From Deltaproteobacteria bacterium (GTDB lineage: Bacteria; Desulfobacterota; Syntrophia; Syntrophales; Smithellaceae): 64,000 nt of DNA. Below are positions 34,901 through 44,510 of the stretch, piece by piece; position 1 is the first letter of the stretch, and each line of letters starts with the position of its first letter. The stretch spans positions 5,691 through 69,690 of the forward strand of contig JAAYDW010000056.1 of the NCBI GenBank assembly GCA_012729055.1, read 5' to 3'. The position numbers and the translations under genes are program-made. A model generated the notes under the pieces. That model was not told the origin of the DNA. It ran no database searches and saw only the letters and a program-made list of their open reading frames with translations.

Positions 34901-36010
34901 ATGACAGCGATTTTGACTTGTGATAAGTACAGCGTCATGAACGTCAATATGAATATGAACAAGGACAAGCTCATCCTGTTTTTCCTGGCGGTCCTGGCCG
35001 TGATTGCCGCCGGTTTCGTGCTGAAGCTCGCCAAGCCGGTGATTCTGCCGCTCGCGATCGCCTGGCTTTTGACCTTTGTGGTGGGGCCCGCGGTCAATGC
35101 GATGACGCAGCGGAAGATTCCCCTGCCGATCGCCATCGCGGTCGTCATGCTTTTTCTGTGCGGCGTCGTTTTCCTCGGCGTCTTTTTTCTGTACGGCCGG
35201 GTAGTCACCATTGTGACCGAGTTTCCCAAGTATGAAGCCAGATTCGTTCAGATCGGCAACGAACTGAATGCTCTGTTTCCCTTTCAGTACAACTTCCTCG
35301 CCGATTTTTCCTGGAGGGACTCGGTGCACGATACGCTGGCCGGCCTGCCGGGGTCGTTCTTCACCATCCTGTCGAACCTGGTGATGGTCATGATTTTCCT
35401 GGCCTTCCTGCTGGCGGGAAAACCGTACGTCAAGCACAAGATGGATCACGCGCTCTCCGAAAGGCGGGCGGCGCAGATGAAAAAAATCGTCGGTTCCATC
35501 TCCTTCGAAATCAGCCGGTATCTCTGGGTCATGGTGATCATCAGCCTGACCACGGGCGTCCTGATCTGGTTCGCCTTGTCCCTCATCGGCGTGGACTTTC
35601 CCGTGACGTGGGGCGCGCTCGCCTTTTTCTTCAACTTCATTCCCACGATCGGTTCCATTGTCGCCTCTCTTCCGCCGATTCTTCTGGCCCTGGTCCAGTT
35701 TTACCCTGCGATCTGGCCGGGCATAATTACGCTGGTCGTCATTGCCGCCATTCAGATGACGATTGGAAACTTCATTGCGCCGAAAGTTCTGGGCGACCGT
35801 CTGCATTTGAGCCCGGTGGTCATTTTGATTTCTCTTTTGTTCTGGGGTTGGCTGTGGGGCATTGTCGGAGCGCTCCTGGCCGTGCCGATTGCCTCGGCCA
35901 TCAAGATTGCCTGCGAAAACATCGAAGAGCTGCATCCGATTGCCATCATGATGGGATCGGGCCGGCGCTTCTGGAAGGAACACCGGAAAGCTAAAAAGAG
36001 CGACCATTGA
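34901..36010 (+). CDS. AI-2E family transporter (PerM/YhhT-like permease)
   Basis: Polytopic membrane protein. The conserved C-terminal block FWGWLWGIVGALLAVPI is typical of the family. The start is uncertain: 34901, or ATGs at 34937-34952. Confidence 0.8.
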   Translation: MTAILTCDKYSVMNVNMNMNKDKLILFFLAVLAVIAAGFVLKLAKPVILPLAIAWLLTFVVGPAVNAMTQRKIPLPIAIAVVMLFLCGVVFLGVFFLYGRVVTIVTEFPKYEARFVQIGNELNALFPFQYNFLADFSWRDSVHDTLAGLPGSFFTILSNLVMVMIFLAFLLAGKPYVKHKMDHALSERRAAQMKKIVGSISFEISRYLWVMVIISLTTGVLIWFALSLIGVDFPVTWGALAFFFNFIPTIGSIVASLPPILLALVQFYPAIWPGIITLVVIAAIQMTIGNFIAPKVLGDRLHLSPVVILISLLFWGWLWGIVGALLAVPIASAIKIACENIEELHPIAIMMGSGRRFWKEHRKAKKSDH

Positions 36011-36072
36011 CCGGACCATCCGGCAACAACCGGTATGAGGAAGTGCCGCCGGAGGCGAAAAGGAGAAGTTCC

Positions 36073-36498
36073 ATGAAAGAAAAAATCATTTGCTTTGCGC
36101 TGGGGCTGTCCGGCGGAGATATCGAAAAAGGCAAGGCGTCTTTCGGGCAGATGAACGAAGGAACGCACGAGCTCGACGTGATTGCCGTAAGCGATGCCAT
36201 GCTGGCCGCGACGGTTGAGGAAGCGCTCGGTCAAGCGGACAGAACGAAAGGCGGGCAGACCCCGGTTCTTTCCGGAAATCGGGTGGTCATGGTGAACACG
36301 CAGGAGCGTCCGCTGGTTTTGCAGGTGCTTAGAAGCTTCAAGGCCGTGCTGTCCGACCCGCAGGACCTGATCTTTGCCGTCATCACCGATACGGCCCGGA
36401 CCTGGACATTTGGCGAGTATCTCGGGCATCTCAAAAGGGAGCATGAATATCTGAAAACCCACCGCCCGGAAAACGAGCCGGATATGAAACGGATGTAA
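36073..36498 (+). CDS. Hypothetical protein (possibly DUF3783-like)
   Basis: An AGGAGA RBS precedes the ATG at 36073. 141 aa with coding-like composition. The family guess is weak. Confidence 0.55.
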   Translation: MKEKIICFALGLSGGDIEKGKASFGQMNEGTHELDVIAVSDAMLAATVEEALGQADRTKGGQTPVLSGNRVVMVNTQERPLVLQVLRSFKAVLSDPQDLIFAVITDTARTWTFGEYLGHLKREHEYLKTHRPENEPDMKRM

Positions 36499-36607
36499 CG
36501 CATGCGGACGTTTTTCGAGGCCCTTGACAAGAGCCGAAACGTTTTCATTTTATAAACCATGGGACAAAAGATGCCGGTTTCGCCGGACCGTCCGGGAGGT
36601 TTTGAAA

Positions 36608-37096
36608 ATGAAGAGTCGGAGTTTGAGAAACACTTTGCGCTGTGGACTCGCGGGCGCGGTTCTTTTTTCGCTTGTGGGCTGCGCCGGCTTCAATATCATC
36701 AAAGAACAGGCGGTGCCCGACATTCCCCCCGGACCGTACCGGCACATCATCAGGCTCTATAATCCTGAAGGCGAGCCGGAAAGGTCGCTGGCCGGTCTGG
36801 TGATTTCAACGGGGAGTGCGACCGTCTGTTCGGATTATCCGCGCGAAATTATCATTAAAAGTCTGGACGAACTGCCGTTGATGGAAAAGAAAGCTTTTCC
36901 CTATTTCAACAACTACGTGATTCGGGACAAGGAAGAGATCGTGGGATACGTTTCCCTGGAGATCGGATACCGGACGGTTGTCTGGCGCACGGCAAAAGAC
37001 CCCGAGTGCGCTTATCGGGCGCAAATCGTTCTGCCCGATCATGTCTGGCTGAGCGGCAAACATCACGACGCCGACCAAAGCGGGATCAACTGGTAG
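36608..37096 (+). CDS. Hypothetical lipoprotein
   Basis: Signal peptide with the lipobox LVGC (MKSRSLRNTLRCGLAGAVLFSLVGCAG). Confidence 0.6.
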   Translation: MKSRSLRNTLRCGLAGAVLFSLVGCAGFNIIKEQAVPDIPPGPYRHIIRLYNPEGEPERSLAGLVISTGSATVCSDYPREIIIKSLDELPLMEKKAFPYFNNYVIRDKEEIVGYVSLEIGYRTVVWRTAKDPECAYRAQIVLPDHVWLSGKHHDADQSGINW

Positions 37097-37254: not shown

Positions 37255-39375
37255 ATGCAATTTACTGAGCGCGTTTTTTGCGGCCGGCTTGCGCCCCAGG
37301 ACGTCGGCCGCCGCGTGCTTTTGGCCGGGTGGGTGGACGCCTTCCGGGATCACGGCGGCCTGCTTTTTCTTCATCTGCGCGACCGCAGCGGCATCATGCA
37401 GATTGTCTTCAGTCCCGAAGTCGCCTCCCCGGAGGTCTGCCGGCAGGCGACGGCCCTGCGCGCCGAGTACTGCATCGCGGCGGCGGGCGTTGTTCGGCAG
37501 CGTCTCGCCGGAACGGAAAACCCCAACATCGAAACGGGATCCATCGAGGTGTTCGTGACGGAGCTTGAGGTGCTTTCCGAATCCGACGCCCTGCCCTTTT
37601 CCGTTTCCGACAAGGCGATGGTGGCGGGCGCTCCGTCGGCCGGCTCCGACGCGGTGGCCGAGGATCTGCGCCTTCAGTACCGGTATCTGGACATCCGCCG
37701 TCCCGCCATGCGCGACAATCTGGTGGCGCGCCACCGCATTTTTCAGTGCGTCCGCGAATTTCTCGACTCCCGGGGCTTTGTGGAAGTCGAAACGCCGATG
37801 CTCACGGCCAGCACGCCCGAAGGCGCGCGCGACTACCTGGTGCCCAGCCGCGTCCATCCGGGAAATTTCTACGCCCTGCCCCAGTCGCCGCAACTGTTCA
37901 AGCAACTGCTGATGATCGGCGGTCTGGAGCGCTACTTTCAGCTCGCGCGCTGCTTCCGAGACGAGGACCTGCGCCCCAACCGCCAGCCGGAATTCACGCA
38001 GCTCGATATCGAAGCGTCGTTCATCGATGAAGAGTTCCTCTTCGAACTGATCGAAGAGCTGACCGTCCGGATGTTCGCAATCGGCGGCATCGAACTGGCG
38101 CGGCCCTTCGTGCGGATGACGTACGCGGAAGCGATGGACACGACCGGCTCCGACCGGCCCGATTTGCGCTTTGGGCTGCGCTTTGTCGACGTCACGGATG
38201 TCTTTGCCGAAACCCGTTACGCGATCTTCCGCCAGATTCTGCAGCGCGGCGGCTGCATCAAGGGCATCAACATCCAGGGCCAGTCCGAAAAACTGAGCAA
38301 GAACGTTTTGCAAAACGAATACGCCCGGGAAATCGCGCCGTCGTTCGGCGCCAAAGGCATGACCTGGATGCGCGCCGAAGGCGGAAAGCTCGAATCCAAC
38401 ATCGTCCAGTTTTTCAGCGAGAAGGAACTGGAGGAATTGCAGCGCCGCTTTGCGGTTGCCGACGGAGACGTACTCATCCTGATTGCCGATCCTTCCTATG
38501 CGGTGGTGACCTCCGCGCTGGGCCAGCTTCGTCTGCACCTGGCGGGCCGTCTGGGGCTCATTGCCGAAAACAGCTTTTACCCGGTCTGGATCACCGAGTT
38601 TCCGCTTTTTGAGCCCACGGATGAAGGAGGCGTCACCTCGAGCCATCATCCGTTCACCGCGCCGGACCGCGAGGACTTCGATCCGAAAAATATTGAGGAA
38701 CTGCTTTCGCTCAAGTCCCGCGCCTACGATCTGGTCATGAACGGCGAGGAGCTGGGCGGCGGCAGCATCCGCATCAACAACCGCGACCTGCAGCGCAGAA
38801 TTTTTGCCGCGCTGGGGCTTTCGGAAGAAGAGACGCGGGAGCGATTCGGCTTCTTTCTGCGGGCGTTCGATTTCGGCGCGCCGCCGCATGGCGGACTGGC
38901 GCTGGGCATGGACCGCACCGTGTCGATGATCCTGCAGACGCCGTCGATCCGCGAAGTGATCGCGTTTCCGAAAAACCGCAGCGCGGCCTGCCCCCTGACC
39001 GGGGCGCCCTCGACGGTCAAGCGCGAGCAGCTGGCCGAACTGGGGCTGCTCGATTTGGGCGGCAAAGAAGCGCTGCCGGGAACGGCGGAAAAGGAAGACC
39101 CGATTGATTACCTCTCCTGGGTGTCGCGCATCGGCATCTCCGCCGCGGAGCGTCCCGTAATGGAGGAGATCCTCGCCGGGGCCGCTGCGCTGGCCCGTCT
39201 GGCTGAAGAAAATGCGGGGCCGGAAGAGCCGATCTACACCGTGGCGGCCGTGTCCAACCGCATGCGGCCGGGCACAAAGGAGCAGCGCTCGGAATTCGCC
39301 GCAAACGGCCGGTTCCTCAAAAGCGCTCCCGCGGTCAAGGGAGATTACTTCAAAGTCGCCAGCATTCTGGAATAA
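37255..39375 (+). CDS. aspS: Aspartyl-tRNA synthetase with a C-terminal GatC domain fusion
   Basis: Class II AspRS body: OB-fold N-terminus, FRDEDLR, GGGSIR, and the motif 3 region GLALGMDR. About 110 extra C-terminal residues read as GatC (see findings). Confidence 0.9.
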   Translation: MQFTERVFCGRLAPQDVGRRVLLAGWVDAFRDHGGLLFLHLRDRSGIMQIVFSPEVASPEVCRQATALRAEYCIAAAGVVRQRLAGTENPNIETGSIEVFVTELEVLSESDALPFSVSDKAMVAGAPSAGSDAVAEDLRLQYRYLDIRRPAMRDNLVARHRIFQCVREFLDSRGFVEVETPMLTASTPEGARDYLVPSRVHPGNFYALPQSPQLFKQLLMIGGLERYFQLARCFRDEDLRPNRQPEFTQLDIEASFIDEEFLFELIEELTVRMFAIGGIELARPFVRMTYAEAMDTTGSDRPDLRFGLRFVDVTDVFAETRYAIFRQILQRGGCIKGINIQGQSEKLSKNVLQNEYAREIAPSFGAKGMTWMRAEGGKLESNIVQFFSEKELEELQRRFAVADGDVLILIADPSYAVVTSALGQLRLHLAGRLGLIAENSFYPVWITEFPLFEPTDEGGVTSSHHPFTAPDREDFDPKNIEELLSLKSRAYDLVMNGEELGGGSIRINNRDLQRRIFAALGLSEEETRERFGFFLRAFDFGAPPHGGLALGMDRTVSMILQTPSIREVIAFPKNRSAACPLTGAPSTVKREQLAELGLLDLGGKEALPGTAEKEDPIDYLSWVSRIGISAAERPVMEEILAGAAALARLAEENAGPEEPIYTVAAVSNRMRPGTKEQRSEFAANGRFLKSAPAVKGDYFKVASILE
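39100..39372 (+). other. gatC: GatC-like domain (about 91 aa) at the C-terminus of the aspS ORF
   Basis: PIDYLSWVSRIGISAAERPVMEEILAGAAALARLAEENAGPEEPIYTVAAVSNRMRPGTKEQRSEFAANGRFLKSAPAVKGDYFKVASILE aligns by eye along its whole length with canonical GatC (e.g. ...VEHIANLARLQISPEE...GVEPTYHVLDLQNVLRED...LKNAKETEDGQFKVPTIM). Confidence 0.75.
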
Positions 39376-39391
39376 AGGGAGACGTCATTTC

Positions 39392-40585
39392 ATGGATTCC
39401 ATTTTTTTCTACCGCAACCCCGCCGCCGCCCCGACGGACGGCCCCCTGGCAGGGTTGAAAATCGCCGTTCAGCCCGCTGTCTCGGTGGCCGGCTGGCCCG
39501 CCGACGCGGGATCCAAAGCCCTGGCCAATTTTACGGCGCTTGAGGACGCAACCGTTGTGAGCCGGCTTGTCCAGTCCGGCGCTTTTATCTGCGGCTCGAC
39601 CCTCGGCAGTGAATTCGGCTTCGGCCTTGCCGAAAGCCGCGCGGGCGAAGCCGTCAAACACAACATCGCCGCTGCGGAGCTGATGCTCGACATGATGGGC
39701 GAAAGCCGCCTGGCCGCTTGCGGCGCGGGCGTCTGCGGCTTCAAGCCCGGCTACGGCCTGGTGTCGCACTTCGGTCTCATCGGCCTTATTCCGTCTATGG
39801 AAGTCTGCGGCCTCTTGGCCGGTTCGTGCCAGACGATCCGGCATCTGCTTCGGGCCCTGGCCGGTCCCGACGATAAGGATTTCTCGCTTCCCGACGAAAA
39901 GCCCGGAGAGTTTTCCGCGCCGGCGCCGGAGCCGTCGAAGACGACGATCGGCGTCATTGCCGAAGCGCAAAGCGCTCTTCCGGATGCGGAGAAAAGCAAA
40001 TTTCGCGCCTCCGTCGCGGCGCTGCAAAAAGCGGGCTTTGCCGTCCGGGAGGTCTCCTTTCCCGACTGGCCGTTGTTTTTGCCGGTGCATAAAATCGTCG
40101 GCTCGGTGGAGGCGTCTTCCGCCGCAGGGCGCTACGACTCGGTCCGCTACGGCGAGCGCGCGCCGGGCGCCAGAAACTGGAACGAGATGTACCTGGCGTC
40201 CCGCGGCGCGGCATTCGGCACGCTTTTGAAAAGCTATCTGATTCAGGGCGCGTATTTTCAGTTTCAGCGCTACGACGCTTATGAAAACGCCTGCCGCATC
40301 CGCGCGCGTCTGGTCGCAGACATGAAGAAGCTGACGGATGCGGTCGATTTTCTCGTCCTTCCGGTTTCCGGCGGCGCCTCCGAAGAGCGTCCGGGGACGC
40401 TCGACGAAACCTACGGGCGGTTTGCTGCGACGGCGTTTGCCAACGTCACGGGCCAGCCGGCGCTGGTTCTGCCGCCCGCCTCCGCGGCGGAAGCGCCCTT
40501 TCAGCTGGCGGGGCCGAGGCTGGGCGACGCGGCGCTTTTGGCGCTGGGCGATTTTCTGCTGTCTGTGCGCGAGAAAGGAAAATAG
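39392..40585 (+). CDS. gatA: GatA-like amidase-family subunit, N-terminally short and with a degenerate amidase signature
   Basis: The C-terminal two thirds are GatA-like (FKPGYGLVSHFGLI, VEASSAAGRYDSVRYG, NVTGQPALVLP). Its position between the gatC domain and gatB also fits. Length is 397 aa, versus about 485 aa as I recall for typical GatA. Confidence 0.75.
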   Translation: MDSIFFYRNPAAAPTDGPLAGLKIAVQPAVSVAGWPADAGSKALANFTALEDATVVSRLVQSGAFICGSTLGSEFGFGLAESRAGEAVKHNIAAAELMLDMMGESRLAACGAGVCGFKPGYGLVSHFGLIGLIPSMEVCGLLAGSCQTIRHLLRALAGPDDKDFSLPDEKPGEFSAPAPEPSKTTIGVIAEAQSALPDAEKSKFRASVAALQKAGFAVREVSFPDWPLFLPVHKIVGSVEASSAAGRYDSVRYGERAPGARNWNEMYLASRGAAFGTLLKSYLIQGAYFQFQRYDAYENACRIRARLVADMKKLTDAVDFLVLPVSGGASEERPGTLDETYGRFAATAFANVTGQPALVLPPASAAEAPFQLAGPRLGDAALLALGDFLLSVREKGK

Positions 40586-40587
40586 GA

Positions 40588-42015
40588 ATGGACTTTGAAG
40601 CGGTCATCGGATTGGAAATCCACATTGAACTCAACTGCAAAACCAAAATGTTTTGCGATTGCCCCAACCGTCCCGGCGACGATCCCAATCTCAACACCTG
40701 CCCGACCTGCCTGTGGCTGCCGGGCGCGATTCCCCGGTTCAGCGCCGAGGCGCTGGAAAAGGCGTCGCTTCTGTGCCTGGGGCTGGGCGCCGAGCTCCAG
40801 CCGCAAAGCGCCTTCGACCAGAAGGTATACTACTATCCGGATCTGCCGAAGGGCTACCAGTTGTCGCAGGCCCGCAGGCCTCTGTCGTGCGGCGGCGGCA
40901 TCGACATTACCGACGAAGACGGCAATCTGAAAAGGCTGCGCATCCACCACATTCACATGGAAGAGGACGTCGCGAAGCTGGTGCACGAGCTGGAAGGCCG
41001 CGTGCCGATCAGCCTGGTGGACTTCAACCGCGCCGGCGCCCCGCTGGTGGAAATCGTGACGGAGCCGGATTTGCGCACGCCGCATCACGCCATGGAGTTT
41101 CTGAAGGCGCTGCGTACGCAGGTGCGCTACGTCGGCTCTTCCGAGTGCAGCATGGAAAACGGATCGATGCGCGTCGACGCGAACATTTCCGTTCGGCCCC
41201 GGGGCACCAGCCAGATGAACACGAAAGTGGAAGTCAAGAACATGAATTCCGTCCGCCATGTGGGCGACGCCATCGCTTACGAAATCAGCCGCCAGAGCCA
41301 GGCGGTGCAGGCGGGCGAGGCGGTCGTGCTGCACACGCGCCTGTGGGATCCGGACAAGAAAGTCACTCTGCCGATGCGCGGCAAATTCGAAGGCCCGTGT
41401 GTTCCCGACCCGATGGTGCCGGTTATTGAACTGTCGCCCGCCTTTATCGACGAGATGCGCTCGCGCCTGCCGGAGATGCCGGCCGCGCGGGCCGAGCGCT
41501 TCGTGAACGACTACCGGCTCACCGGCGAGGAAGCGGCGTTTTTGAGCGCCGATCCGGACGTCGCCGGCTTTTTCGAGGCGCTCGTCAAAAAAGGCGTCGC
41601 GCCGCGCACGGCCATGCACTGGCTTGCCACGCAGCTCATTCCGGCCGTGAAAGAACGCAGGCTGGAGCTCGGCGCGTCGCGGGTGACGCCGGAGCGCCTG
41701 GCGGCGCTCCTTGCCCTGCTGGCCAAAGATGAAATCAACGCCAACGCGGCGCGCGAAGTTCTCGCGCATCTGTTTGAAAGCGACGAGACGCCGGAAGCGA
41801 TCGTGAACGCGCGGGGCTTCAAACAGGTGTCCGACGCAGGCGCGCTGGCGGCGATGATCGACAAAGTCCTTGCCGGGCAGCCGGCGGCTGTGGCCGATTT
41901 CCAAGCCGGCCAGGGAAAAGCCCTGGGCTTTCTCATCGGCCAGGTGATGCAGTCCTCCGGCGGCAAGGCCAATCCGAAAATTCTCCGGGAGCTGCTGATG
42001 AAAAAGCTGGGGTAA
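40588..42015 (+). CDS. gatB: Asp/Glu-tRNA amidotransferase subunit B
   Basis: MDFEAVIGLEIHIELNCKTKMFCDC, DFNRAGAPLVEIVTEPD and NMNS. The C-terminal YqeY-like tail is present. Length is 475 aa. Confidence 0.95.
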   Translation: MDFEAVIGLEIHIELNCKTKMFCDCPNRPGDDPNLNTCPTCLWLPGAIPRFSAEALEKASLLCLGLGAELQPQSAFDQKVYYYPDLPKGYQLSQARRPLSCGGGIDITDEDGNLKRLRIHHIHMEEDVAKLVHELEGRVPISLVDFNRAGAPLVEIVTEPDLRTPHHAMEFLKALRTQVRYVGSSECSMENGSMRVDANISVRPRGTSQMNTKVEVKNMNSVRHVGDAIAYEISRQSQAVQAGEAVVLHTRLWDPDKKVTLPMRGKFEGPCVPDPMVPVIELSPAFIDEMRSRLPEMPAARAERFVNDYRLTGEEAAFLSADPDVAGFFEALVKKGVAPRTAMHWLATQLIPAVKERRLELGASRVTPERLAALLALLAKDEINANAAREVLAHLFESDETPEAIVNARGFKQVSDAGALAAMIDKVLAGQPAAVADFQAGQGKALGFLIGQVMQSSGGKANPKILRELLMKKLG

Positions 42016-42084
42016 GGAATCGTCGGATCGGGGCAGGCGCAACCGGACACGCAGGATAAGCGCGGCGGTTCAGGAAACATCACG

Positions 42085-42120
42085 GGGCTTTCTCCGGTCG
42101 GAGAAGGCCCTGTTTGTTTT
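42085..42120 (+). terminator. Rho-independent terminator after gatB
   Basis: GGGCTTTCTCCG-gtc-GGAGAAGGCCC followed by TGTTTGTTTT. Confidence 0.75.
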
Positions 42121-42138: not shown

Positions 42139-43014
42139 TTAACCGGCTGAGGCTTGCGCCTGGGCCGCGTGGTAGGAGCTGCGCACCAGGGGGCCGGCTT
42201 CGACGTGCTGAAATCCTCTGGCGCGGGCGATTTCCCCCCATTCGGCAAATTCGTCGGGCGTCCAGTAGCGGGCGACCGGCCAGTGCCGAAGCGTCGGCTG
42301 CTGGTACTGCCCGATGGTGAGGCGCGCGCAGGAGACGGATGCGAGATCGTCGATCAGGCGTAAAATATCCTCCCGGGTTTCACCGAATCCCACCATGAAA
42401 CCGCTCTTGGCGAGGACAGGCGAAAGGGCGACGCGCGAAAGCAGGTTTAGCGACCGGCGGTAGTCGCCCTGCGGCCGCAGACGGGGGAAAAGCGCCTCGG
42501 CCGCCTCCAGATTGTGATTGATCACGTCCGGCCGCGCCGCGATGACCGTCTCCAGGGCGGACGCGTCGCCGGCGAAGTCGGGAATCAAAACCTCAATGCG
42601 GCAGCCGGGAACGGACTGGCGCAGCCGTGCGATGGTGTCGGCAAAAAAACCCGCGCCTCCGTCGGGCAGATCGTCGCGCGTCACGGACGTGACGACGACG
42701 TAGCAGAGCTTCATCTGCAAAACGGCGGCAACGAGGCGGTCGGTTTCGCCGGCGTCGATCTCCTGCGGACGGCCGTGCGCGACATTGCAGTAGAGGCAAT
42801 GGCGCGTGCAGACCCGGCCGAGAATCAGAAACGTCGCGGTTCCGCTCGCAAAACACTCGGCCAGATTGGGACAGGCCGCCTCCTGGCAGACCGTGTGCAG
42901 GTGCAGGTCGCCAAGCGTCCGCCGGATTCGGCGGCAGCCGTCGGCGTAAGGCGGACGGACCTTGAGCCAGGGCGGTTTGCGCAACAGGGACTGCGGAGTT
43001 TGTTGATTTTCCAT
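42139..43014 (-). CDS. lipA: Lipoyl synthase
   Basis: CQEAACPNLAECF and the radical SAM motif CTRHCLYC. The start is placed at MENQQTPQSLLRKPPWLKV. The upstream part of the long ORF is Arg-rich and overlaps gcvPB. Confidence 0.9.
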   Translation of the reverse strand: MENQQTPQSLLRKPPWLKVRPPYADGCRRIRRTLGDLHLHTVCQEAACPNLAECFASGTATFLILGRVCTRHCLYCNVAHGRPQEIDAGETDRLVAAVLQMKLCYVVVTSVTRDDLPDGGAGFFADTIARLRQSVPGCRIEVLIPDFAGDASALETVIAARPDVINHNLEAAEALFPRLRPQGDYRRSLNLLSRVALSPVLAKSGFMVGFGETREDILRLIDDLASVSCARLTIGQYQQPTLRHWPVARYWTPDEFAEWGEIARARGFQHVEAGPLVRSSYHAAQAQASAG

Positions 43015-43061
43015 GGGAACACCGGCCGATTGACGAAAGCGCTTGCGCGCCTTGATTCTTT

Positions 43062-44510
43062 CTACGCTTTGGGTTTGCTCCAGCAGACGTCCGGCTTGCG
43101 GGCGGCCAGGACTTCGTCCAGGCGGCCGACCGGCGTGGAAAGAGGCGCGTCCTTCACGCGCTGCGGATTTTCCTCCGCCTCCCGGGCAATGGCCGCCATG
43201 GCGTCGCAAAAGGCGTCGAGCGTCTCTTTGCTTTCCGTTTCCGTAGGCTCGATCATGATGGCTTCCGCGACGATGAGCGGAAAGTAAATCGTCGGCGGGT
43301 GGTAGCCGAAATCGATCAGGCGCTTGGCGATGTCGGTGGTGTGCACGCCGCTCAGGGCGACCTGCCGGCTGCCGGAAAAGACGCATTCATGCATGCAGAT
43401 GCGGTCGTAGGGCAGATCGAAAGAGGGCTTAAGCTTCTCCTTGATGTAGTTGGCGTTGAGGACGGCCATTTCCGCGGCGCGGATCAGCCCGGCGGCGCCG
43501 AGCGACCGGAGATAGCTATAGGCTTTGACGATGACGGAAAAGTTTCCGTAAAAGGCGCGGACCCGTCCGATCGTATCCGGAAAGTCCGACGACCAGCGCA
43601 GTCCCGCCTCGCAGGGAACGATGCGGGGCACCGGAAGAAAGTCCGTCAGTTTTTCCCCTACGCCCACCGGGCCGCTGCCCGGGCCGCCGCCGCCGTGCGG
43701 CGTGGAAAAGGTTTTGTGCAAATTGAGCTGGATGACGTCGAACCCCAGGTCGCCGGGGCGCGTCTTGCCCAAAAAGGCGTTGGCGTTGGCGCCGTCGCCG
43801 TAGAGCAGTCCGCCCCTGTCGTGGACGACCCTGGCCACTTCTTCGATGTTGCGCTCGAAAAGGCCGAGCGTGTTGGGATTGGTGAGCATCAGGGCCGCGA
43901 CGTCTTCCGTCATCAGAGCGTCCAGGCGCCGAAGATCGACGCCGCCTTCAGCGTTCGAGCCGAGCGTGACCGTTTCGAATCCGCAAAGCGCGCCGGAAGC
44001 CGGATTGGTGCCGTGGGCCGCGTCGGGAATCAGAATCCGCCGGCGCTTTTCACCTTTTTTCTCGAAGTATTTCCGGATCATCATGACGCCGGTGAGCTCG
44101 CCGTGTGCGCCGGCCGCGGGCTGCAGCGTAAAATCAGCCATGCCGAAAATAGCGCACAAGAGCCTCTGCATGTCGAAGAGGAGCTCCAGATTGCCCCGGG
44201 CAAAAGCCTCCGGCGCGGCCGGGTGCAGGCCGGTGAAGCCCGGAAGCGCCGCGACGTTTTCGTTGATTTTGGGGTTGTATTTCATGGTGCAGGACCCGAG
44301 CGGATAAAAGCCGAGATCCACGCCGAAGTTCCGCCGCGACAGACTGGTGTAGTGGCGCACCAGGTCGGTTTCGGAGACTTCCGGCAGGTCCAGCTCTTCG
44401 CGCATAAACGACGCGCCAATGACGTCCTCAAGAGAGACGGCCGGAACGTCGCCCGCCGGAACATCGGCGGCGGCGCGGCCGGGTTTGCTTATTTCAAATA
44501 TCAGTTGCAT
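43062..44510 (-). CDS. gcvPB: Glycine dehydrogenase (decarboxylating) subunit 2
   Basis: 482 aa. The PLP-lysine region [16 protein letters not shown] is present. Confidence 0.95.

Follow-up and report, generated by a model that had tools for sequence, protein, structure and literature searches.

A GatA-like protein without glutaminase residues in a second AspRS-GatC/GatA/GatB module of Syntrophales

The 64,000-nucleotide stretch of DNA analyzed here (the window; contig JAAYDW010000056.1 of the Syntrophales assembly GCA_012729055.1) encodes a GatA-like protein of 397 residues between a fused aspS::gatC gene and a gatB gene. In textbook accounts, every tRNA-dependent amidotransferase needs two activities joined by an ammonia tunnel, that of a glutaminase (GatA or GatD) and that of a tRNA kinase/transamidase (GatB or GatE). 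The locus therefore raises the question of whether this protein, which we designate GatA', can act as a glutaminase and, if not, where the amide nitrogen comes from and what the three-gene set contributes to the cell.

Glutaminase residues in GatA'

To judge from its alignments, nothing remains in GatA' of the Ser-cisSer-Lys triad, of the Gly/Ser loop, or of the Arg and Asp that bind glutamine, which makes a Ser-cisSer-Lys glutaminase impossible. The protein matched the Pfam Amidase family (PF01425) with 161.9 bits and the GatA equivalog TIGR00132 with 198.7 bits, the latter without reaching the cut-off of 481.1. HMMER alignment with solved GatA chains revealed that (i) the segment IAVKDNI reads IAVQPAV in GatA', with Gln in place of the catalytic Lys; (ii) the segment DTGGSIRQPA reads DMMGESRLAA, with Glu in place of the nucleophile Ser; (iii) GatA' residues 80–93 correspond to chain residues 125–160 (13 versus 35 residues), a net deletion of 22 residues over the GGSSGGS/cis-Ser region, in which the residues left in GatA' are not conserved across orthologs; and (iv) an N-terminal stretch of about 45–55 residues is absent.

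The canonical GatA of the same genome (described below) aligns almost one-to-one with Staphylococcus aureus GatA at an offset of +1; therefore, the catalytic positions are K79, S154 (the first Ser of GGSSGGS), and S178. Residues were counted in a MAFFT alignment of 32 GatA' orthologs and this canonical GatA. K79 is Gln in 31 of the 32 orthologs, S178 is Glu in all of them, and the S154 region lies within the 22-residue gap. Outside the triad, Y309 is replaced by His and R358 by Tyr or Phe in every ortholog, and D425 by Phe in 26. The S. aureus residues R358 and D425 are equivalent to R334 and D418 of the yeast enzyme, which bind the substrate glutamine (PMC4027206). The gene and the positions concerned are as follows.

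39392–40585, + strand: gatA' (397 aa), encoding a predicted GatA-fold protein without the glutaminase residues (open reading frame (ORF), Pfam, HMMER, ortholog alignment, AlphaFold model)
39470–39472, + strand: codon of Gln27, at the K79 position
~39641, + strand: deletion junction, near GatA' residue 84
39701–39703, + strand: codon of Glu104, at the S178 position
40088–40090, + strand: codon of His233, at the Y309 position
40235–40237, + strand: codon of Tyr282, at the R358 position
40421–40423, + strand: codon of Phe344, at the D425 position

Two residues that might have compensated for these losses were rejected: Lys23 is not conserved among the orthologs, and a Ser found opposite the cis-Ser in the 12 closest orthologs is lost at the 46–50% identity tier. 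Relative to canonical GatA, GatA' has acquired no newly invariant Lys or Ser except Ser165 of a DFS motif, at the T239 position and away from the catalytic motifs. The ortholog alignment contains 63 invariant columns. GatA' and canonical GatA have 51 invariant residues in common, and 31 invariant residues are new to GatA', among them Gln27, Trp35, Glu104, His233, NWN262–264, Gln285, Gln290, and Phe291.

The overall fold is retained. An AlphaFold2 model of GatA', built from a 32-sequence alignment, has a predicted local distance difference test (pLDDT) value of 83 and a predicted template modeling (pTM) score of 0.88. Its best Foldseek matches in the PDB are the GatA chains of the transamidosomes 3KFU (the top match) and 4WJ3 and of GatCAB 3H0L, with query TM-scores (TMq) of 0.83–0.87. 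According to this model, GatA' has the amidase-signature fold of GatA.

The initial annotation of the locus had read a 397-residue GatA-like protein in the gatA position, with which both the Pfam Amidase match and the slot between the gatC tail and gatB in 33 loci agree. Its register, set by eye, was essentially right: profile alignment found no intact Lys-Ser-Ser triad, the approximately 20 residues reported as absent before the signature are the net 22-residue deletion, and the erosion of the signature to DMMGESRLAA reappears in the HMMER alignment and in the uniform replacement of S178 by Glu. The N-terminal loss it described is real, but its size is smaller than the estimate of ~60 residues; likewise, Gln does occupy the Lys position, but the "displaced" Lys is the unconserved Lys23. 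The degenerate motif is conserved across the 32 orthologs. The proposal of a structural pseudo-glutaminase is thus supported by the lost triad, loop, and Arg/Asp pair together with the retained fold, the 51 shared residues, and purifying selection.

The gatA' frame starts 16 nt past the stop codon of aspS::gatC and ends 2 nt ahead of the gatB' ATG, and the following element precedes it.

39376–39381, + strand: Shine-Dalgarno sequence AGGGAG, 10 nt 5' of the gatA' ATG (read from the sequence)

A longer in-frame ORF from the ATG at 39212, which overlaps aspS::gatC, was rejected because the orthologs share the start equivalent to 39392, behind the Shine-Dalgarno sequence. The 12 closest orthologs begin with MDSIFFYR, and more distant ones have a similar short motif at the equivalent position. 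The ratio of nonsynonymous to synonymous substitution rates (dN/dS), taken pairwise at unsaturated distances, is 0.21–0.25 for gatA', compared with 0.10–0.12 for the AspRS part, 0.11–0.18 for gatB', and ~0.2 for the GatC tail. Thus, gatA' evolves under purifying selection that is relaxed about twofold. Metatranscriptome contigs of at least 99% identity cover the operon of the source organism, and a contig of run X49 (39273–39756) crosses the aspS::gatC/gatA' junction. For the Syntrophus buswellii-type ortholog (locus L030), metatranscriptome contigs from three studies likewise cover the operon; one joins aspS::gatC to gatA' and another joins gatA' to gatB'.

The short gene and its lost motifs might suggest a decaying pseudogene or a gatA truncated in assembly, but this explanation is refuted. 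Contigs from independent metagenome studies carry the same gene, with 0 differences over 38901–40617 in X1 and a single 8.4-kb contig crossing gatA' in X4, so that assembly truncation, a possibility left by the initial annotation, was rejected. Ortholog lengths and start positions agree, dN/dS is about 0.2, the gene is transcribed, and approximately 12–16 clusters at 50% identity share the same signature. With its catalytic residues lost and its fold, purifying selection, and expression kept, GatA' has the properties of a pseudoenzyme scaffold.

Two side observations concern the transcripts and the start region. Three metatranscriptome runs, taken from separate studies, show a contig word depth over gatA' (L030:3992–5219) that is ~2–5 times the depth over aspS::gatC and over most of gatB'. 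This depth is a weak measure, and differential mRNA stability or contigs of other strains could produce the difference. A 1-nt deletion at window position 39384, in the 16-nt spacer between the genes and between the Shine-Dalgarno sequence and the ATG, occurs in runs X11 and X49 and shortens the Shine-Dalgarno–ATG spacing by one; it is a strain variant.

The three-gene module beside a canonical pathway

The partners of gatA' and the end of the operon are the following.

37255–39375, + strand: aspS::gatC fusion (706 aa), with the AspRS core at residues ~1–598 and the GatC-like tail at residues ~600–706 (nt 39052–39372) (Pfam, NCBIfam)
40588–42015, + strand: gatB' (475 aa), an intact GatB paralog (NCBIfam, alignment to GatB structures)
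42082–42113, + strand: terminator-like hairpin with a 14-bp stem and a T-rich tail, closing the operon

The order aspS::gatC, gatA', gatB' is the same in all 33 related loci, and the flanking genes differ. The fusion product contains the Pfam domains tRNA-synt_2, GAD, and tRNA_anti-codon of a bacterial-type AspRS and scores 750 bits against the aspS model NF001750. It matches the NCBIfam model NF009460 ("bifunctional AspRS/GatC") end to end (residues 1–706 versus 18–723) with 1345.7 bits, just short of the cut-off of 1379; therefore, the AspRS-GatC fusion already has a name in annotation. Pfam GatC recognizes the tail in 28 of 32 orthologs, and a profile of the tail aligns to residues 5–95 of S. 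aureus GatC. Judged by these matches, the tail is a genuine GatC, although a very divergent one (19.6 bits against Pfam GatC, versus 88 bits for the free canonical GatC described next). GatB' scores 555 bits against the NCBIfam GatB model NF004012 (cut-off 338) and aligns end to end with GatB structures, keeping the IGLEIH, HMEED, EIVTEPD, and KNMNS motifs. No sigma-70-like promoter match was found at the operon.

The genome has a complete canonical set as well. A gatC-gatA-gatB operon lies on contig C9 of the assembly, with the gatC product scoring 88 bits and the gatA (C9:128417–129874, 485 aa) scoring 642.5 bits on TIGR00132, where the cut-off is 481; this is the full-length gatA that the initial annotation had thought might be encoded elsewhere. 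A second AspRS gene, on contig C81, is the housekeeping one. Identity between module and canonical proteins is 47% for the fused and housekeeping AspRS, 28% for GatA' and GatA, and 40% for GatB' and GatB. A His in RDHGG and a loop Gly, which we take to be markers of the non-discriminating AspRS (ND-AspRS) of Pseudomonas aeruginosa, are present in both AspRS copies. AsnRS, AsnB, and AsnA had no match above cut-off in the whole assembly, the only other class II-like match being EpmA; GlnRS scored 772 bits. The assembly contains one tRNA-Asn gene (U1-A72) and one tRNA-Asp gene (G1-C72), and no dedicated tRNA gene occurs in or beside the module in 25 loci. The G+C content at third codon positions (GC3) is 0.75–0.81 for all six genes, and the idea that one of the two sets arrived by recent horizontal transfer or is a contaminant is not supported.

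The AspRS-GatC/GatA'/GatB' set is therefore an accessory second module beside a complete canonical gatCAB and a housekeeping AspRS. The remodeled indirect aminoacylation machine envisaged in the initial annotation exists in so far as these three genes form such a set; it is an addition, that is to say, the sole pathway of the cell was not remodeled.

The same coexistence is seen in other carriers. Among 121 evenly sampled genomes of the order Syntrophales, with a carrier defined by a gatA' of at least 46% identity, 31 genomes (~26%) carry the gene. A GatA above the equivalog cut-off was found in 29 of the 30 other carriers, that is, in 30 of 31 with the source genome included, and the exception is 77% complete. 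A housekeeping AspRS (~48% identity) is present in all other carriers but one, an 87%-complete metagenome-assembled genome. Outside the order, gatA' was found in 8 of ~385 sampled genomes of the phylum. Of the 121 genomes, 8 have AsnRS and none of these carries the module, a trend too weak to call.

Several other genes of the order and of the source genome deserve mention. Unfused paralogs of the module AspRS (64–67% identity, ORFs of 594–626 aa, without the GatC tail) were found in other genomes of the order and may be the precursor or a remnant of the fusion.

G116:C54:56414–58204, unfused module-type AspRS paralog, in a genome with AsnRS
G025:C1:1264984–1266774, unfused module-type AspRS paralog, in a genome with AsnRS
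G114:C179:4070–5860, unfused module-type AspRS paralog
G106:C27:19922–21712, unfused module-type AspRS paralog, beside fused and housekeeping AspRS
G040:C1:11321–13114, unfused module-type AspRS paralog
G020:C1:114327–115913, unfused module-type AspRS paralog, beside fused and housekeeping AspRS

In the source genome, 2 further full-length amidase-signature genes (C4:34725–36002 and C32:1881–3224), unlinked to gat genes, score 334 and 330 bits on Pfam Amidase and ~155 bits on TIGR00132, under its cut-off. There are also 2 full-length GluRS-like ORFs (~500 and ~490 aa, at C41:12617–13207 and C4:19122–19742) and 3 tRNA-Gln genes. NCBIfam gave no match for the 2 small ORFs just 5' of the operon in the window (36007–36498, 163 aa; 36524–37096, 190 aa), whose conservation is limited to a 97%-identical relative. 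Downstream, the lipoyl-synthase ORF (42139–43386, − strand), 415 aa as listed, has an Arg-rich N-terminal region of ~130 aa that appears to be an over-extension; the true start is probably near MENQQTPQ.

Source of the amide nitrogen and rival explanations

On balance, we favor the reading that GatA' is a glutaminase-dead, GatA-fold scaffold of a second, AspRS-tethered Asn-transamidosome that is probably fed by free ammonia. We infer from the composition and conservation of the module that its proteins form a complex, that tRNA-Asn is the substrate, and that ammonia is the donor. The module AspRS, fused to the GatC "belt", would charge tRNA-Asn with Asp, and the GatC tail would keep GatA' and GatB' on the synthetase. 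With its intact kinase/transamidase site, GatB' would phosphorylate Asp-tRNA-Asn and next amidate the phosphorylated intermediate to Asn-tRNA-Asn. Free NH3/NH4+ would enter via the former active site of GatA', a pocket that has been opened and rebuilt, and then pass through the tunnel. The whole would operate as a co-transcribed accessory unit alongside the glutamine-dependent GatCAB and the housekeeping AspRS.

As GatA' would neither bind nor hydrolyze glutamine, another source has to provide the amide nitrogen. No gene for an alternative ammonia donor (glutaminase, asparaginase, or glutamine amidotransferase (GATase)) is linked to the module, whose flanking genes recur in the 97%-identical relative alone. 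The sequencing runs that contain gatA' come from digesters, sludge, and biogas fermenters, habitats that are generally rich in ammonium, and the free NH3/NH4+ of the ammonium-rich digester habitat is the most likely nitrogen source. Free ammonia and another GatA were the two sources that the initial annotation had proposed. For the yeast mitochondrial amidotransferase GatFAB, 20 mM NH4Cl bypasses the glutaminase step, and destabilization of the glutaminase site leads to more NH4Cl-dependent transamidation (PMC4027206). The ammonia step is plausible in view of this bypass, of the effect of a loosened site, and of the occurrence in digesters, sludge, and biogas fermenters. Direct use of ammonia would save the ATP of glutamine regeneration, which would be attractive for syntrophs.

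Several points weigh against the ammonia-fed scaffold. The replacements at the former active-site positions (Gln, Glu, His, and aromatics) are invariant and show no drift, although a site that had simply been abandoned would be expected to drift. Passive entry of ammonia may thus be the wrong picture, and the GatA' pocket could have gained a new chemistry or ligand; conceivable roles are the capture of ammonium, the binding of an effector, and the locking of an activated conformation. In principle, GatB' could also receive ammonia from the cell's canonical GatA if the two paired. No T-box or other Rfam leader was found in the window or in 17 ortholog loci. Finally, the depth of contigs from RNA runs measures expression only weakly, and carry-over of DNA is possible. 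We also advance, only tentatively, a further proposal: the pocket may have been rebuilt as a dedicated ammonium-capture site that feeds the tunnel to GatB', through the Glu, His, Gln, and aromatic residues and the opening left by the loop deletion.

The same invariance could mean that the pocket is a new active or binding site altogether, releasing ammonia from another donor by a non-serine mechanism or gating GatB' through an effector. The residues in question would be Gln27, Trp35, Glu104, His233, NWN262–264, Tyr/Phe282, Gln285/290, and Phe344. The replacements at catalytic and substrate positions are invariant or nearly so, 31 invariant residues are new, and Glu at the nucleophile position recurs in the distant lineages P0165, P0166, P0180, and P0192 (described below). 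We nevertheless consider such a site unlikely: this set of residues is unknown in amidase chemistry, the oxyanion/cis-Ser loop is deleted, the aromatics that replace Arg358 and Asp425 resemble pocket filling, and ligand evidence is nil. Another possibility is subunit mixing. The canonical GatA on contig C9 would pair with GatB' and the fused GatC as the source of ammonia, and GatA' would be a regulatory decoy or placeholder in competition for that site which, for example, tunes the module or switches it off. Canonical GatA is indeed present in 30 of 31 carrier genomes, the 51 invariant residues common to both GatA types could include the GatB/GatC interface, and Tse8 provides a precedent for a GatA-like protein docking into a transamidosome instead of GatA. 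The linkage of the genes tells against this, since gatA' is translationally coupled to gatB' by the 2-nt spacer and the two remain together in 33 loci. So does their divergence: at 28% identity between the GatA types and 40% between the GatB types, with a GatC tail at 19.6 rather than 88 bits, the module and the canonical set would have separately co-evolved interfaces. A pure decoy, moreover, has no need of 63 invariant columns, and we regard mixing as quite improbable.

It is also conceivable that the module works outside translation, using Asp-tRNA or Asn-tRNA, for instance, in the supply of free asparagine or in aminoacyl transfer, or acting on another tRNA. For Asn-tRNA-Asn the cell needs no more than its canonical pathway, the module is patchy in the order, and tRNA-dependent synthesis is the only visible route to asparagine. 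Against these considerations stand the missing dedicated tRNA in or near the module in 25 loci, the single tRNA-Asn and single tRNA-Asp in the genome, and the flanks, which are not conserved and contain no linked transferase gene; a role of this kind is, in our view, very unlikely.

Comparison with known systems and the wider family

The module and canonical GatCAB (S. aureus 2DF4/2F2A, Aquifex aeolicus 3H0L, and the set on contig C9) share three protein families in the order C, A, B, with the predicted GatA fold in GatA', the kinase/transamidase motifs in GatB', and a full-length GatC alignment of the tail. They differ in that GatA' is without the triad, the GGSSGGS loop, the glutamine-binding Arg/Asp, and an N-terminal stretch of ~52 residues, and in that the module GatC is fused to AspRS. 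The Asn-transamidosomes of Thermus thermophilus (3KFU) and P. aeruginosa (4WJ3), non-covalent assemblies of ND-AspRS, GatCAB, and tRNA-Asn, have the same components and the same presumed reaction; the lack of AsnRS in the source genome and the U1-A72 pair of its tRNA-Asn are further points of agreement. By contrast, a covalent bond links the module synthetase to GatC, its glutaminase is predicted to be dead, and the set is a second copy beside a conventional one.

The model NF009460/PRK12820 matches the upstream fusion end to end but is silent on the partner GatA. A tethered arrangement exists in the glutamine transamidosome of Thermotoga maritima, in which an engineered GatC-linker-GluRS (PDB 3AL0 chain C, itself among the structure matches of the GatC tail) likewise attaches GatC to a non-discriminating synthetase. 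That fusion, however, is artificial, has GatC at the N-terminus (the opposite order), uses GluRS as the partner, and works with an active GatA.

Duplication of the pathway has a precedent in the T-box-controlled aspS2-gatCAB2 operon that Saad et al. reportedly described in 2012 in Clostridium acetobutylicum. There, too, a second AspRS and amidotransferase operon is redundant with the first; the difference is the T-box, to which the window and the 17 ortholog loci offer no counterpart among Rfam leaders. A precedent for a non-catalytic occupant is Tse8, a GatA-like type VI effector of P. aeruginosa that is said to occupy the GatA position in the transamidosome and not to catalyze. GatA' matches the Tse8 structure 6TE4 weakly in sequence (E 3e-5), and both are amidase-signature proteins in a proposed non-catalytic GatA place; Tse8, however, is a toxin delivered to other cells and has no operon link to gatB or aspS. 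For the use of ammonia, the closest parallel is yeast GatFAB with a truncated N-terminal domain of GatF, an amidotransferase of the same family that runs on NH4Cl with the glutaminase step bypassed (PMC4027206). This GatF mutant was made in the laboratory from a glutamine-dependent enzyme and has an intact triad, unlike the natural module.

A profile search of 1.84 billion representative proteins placed GatA' in a wider family. The signature Gln, gap, Glu, His, aromatic, Phe defines approximately 12–16 clusters at 50% identity, with scores of at least 375 bits and lengths of 390–412 aa, separated by a clear gap from canonical GatA, which scores at most 256 bits. The Lys-Ser-Ser triad is missing from 42 of the top 136 full-length matches, which include distant degenerate lineages, and in some of these, such as P0165, P0166, P0180, and P0192, Glu again stands at the nucleophile position. 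P0165 (402 aa; L060:2–3374, distant and low in G+C) has Glu in place of the Lys as well as of the nucleophile and belongs to a module with the order of a partial gene (AspRS C-terminus plus GatC), the dead GatA, and GatB. P0180 (405 aa; L061:3675–6656, a metagenome contig, also distant and low in G+C), with Ala at the Lys position and Glu at the nucleophile position, lies within an ordinary gatC-gatA-gatB operon that has a free 96-aa GatC. Therefore, glutaminase-dead GatA is not limited to AspRS-GatC fusion modules.

In the literature searched, we found neither a degenerate GatA nor this operon described, nor any biochemical characterization. The AspRS-GatC fusion is already known (NF009460); what is new is the combination of a conserved glutaminase-dead GatA with a synthetase-fused GatC in a GatCAB-type amidotransferase, as an add-on module. 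GatA' orthologs are labeled "amidase family protein" or "hypothetical protein" by NCBI and plain GatA by JGI. Under the latter label, pathway reconstructions can count the dead subunit as part of a glutamine-dependent amidotransferase.

A natural, synthetase-tethered amidotransferase with a dead glutaminase would be a natural experiment on how ammonia enters the tunnel and how the tunnel is gated, on what GatA contributes apart from catalysis, and on why a cell keeps two routes to Asn-tRNA-Asn. If the pocket is indeed an ammonium-capture site, the complex would be a glutamine-independent synthase of Asn-tRNA-Asn (and of asparagine), saving ATP in energy-starved syntrophs of ammonium-rich digesters, and the recurrence of Glu in unrelated degenerate GatA lineages would point to a general, so far unrecognized class of ammonia-dependent tRNA amidotransferases.

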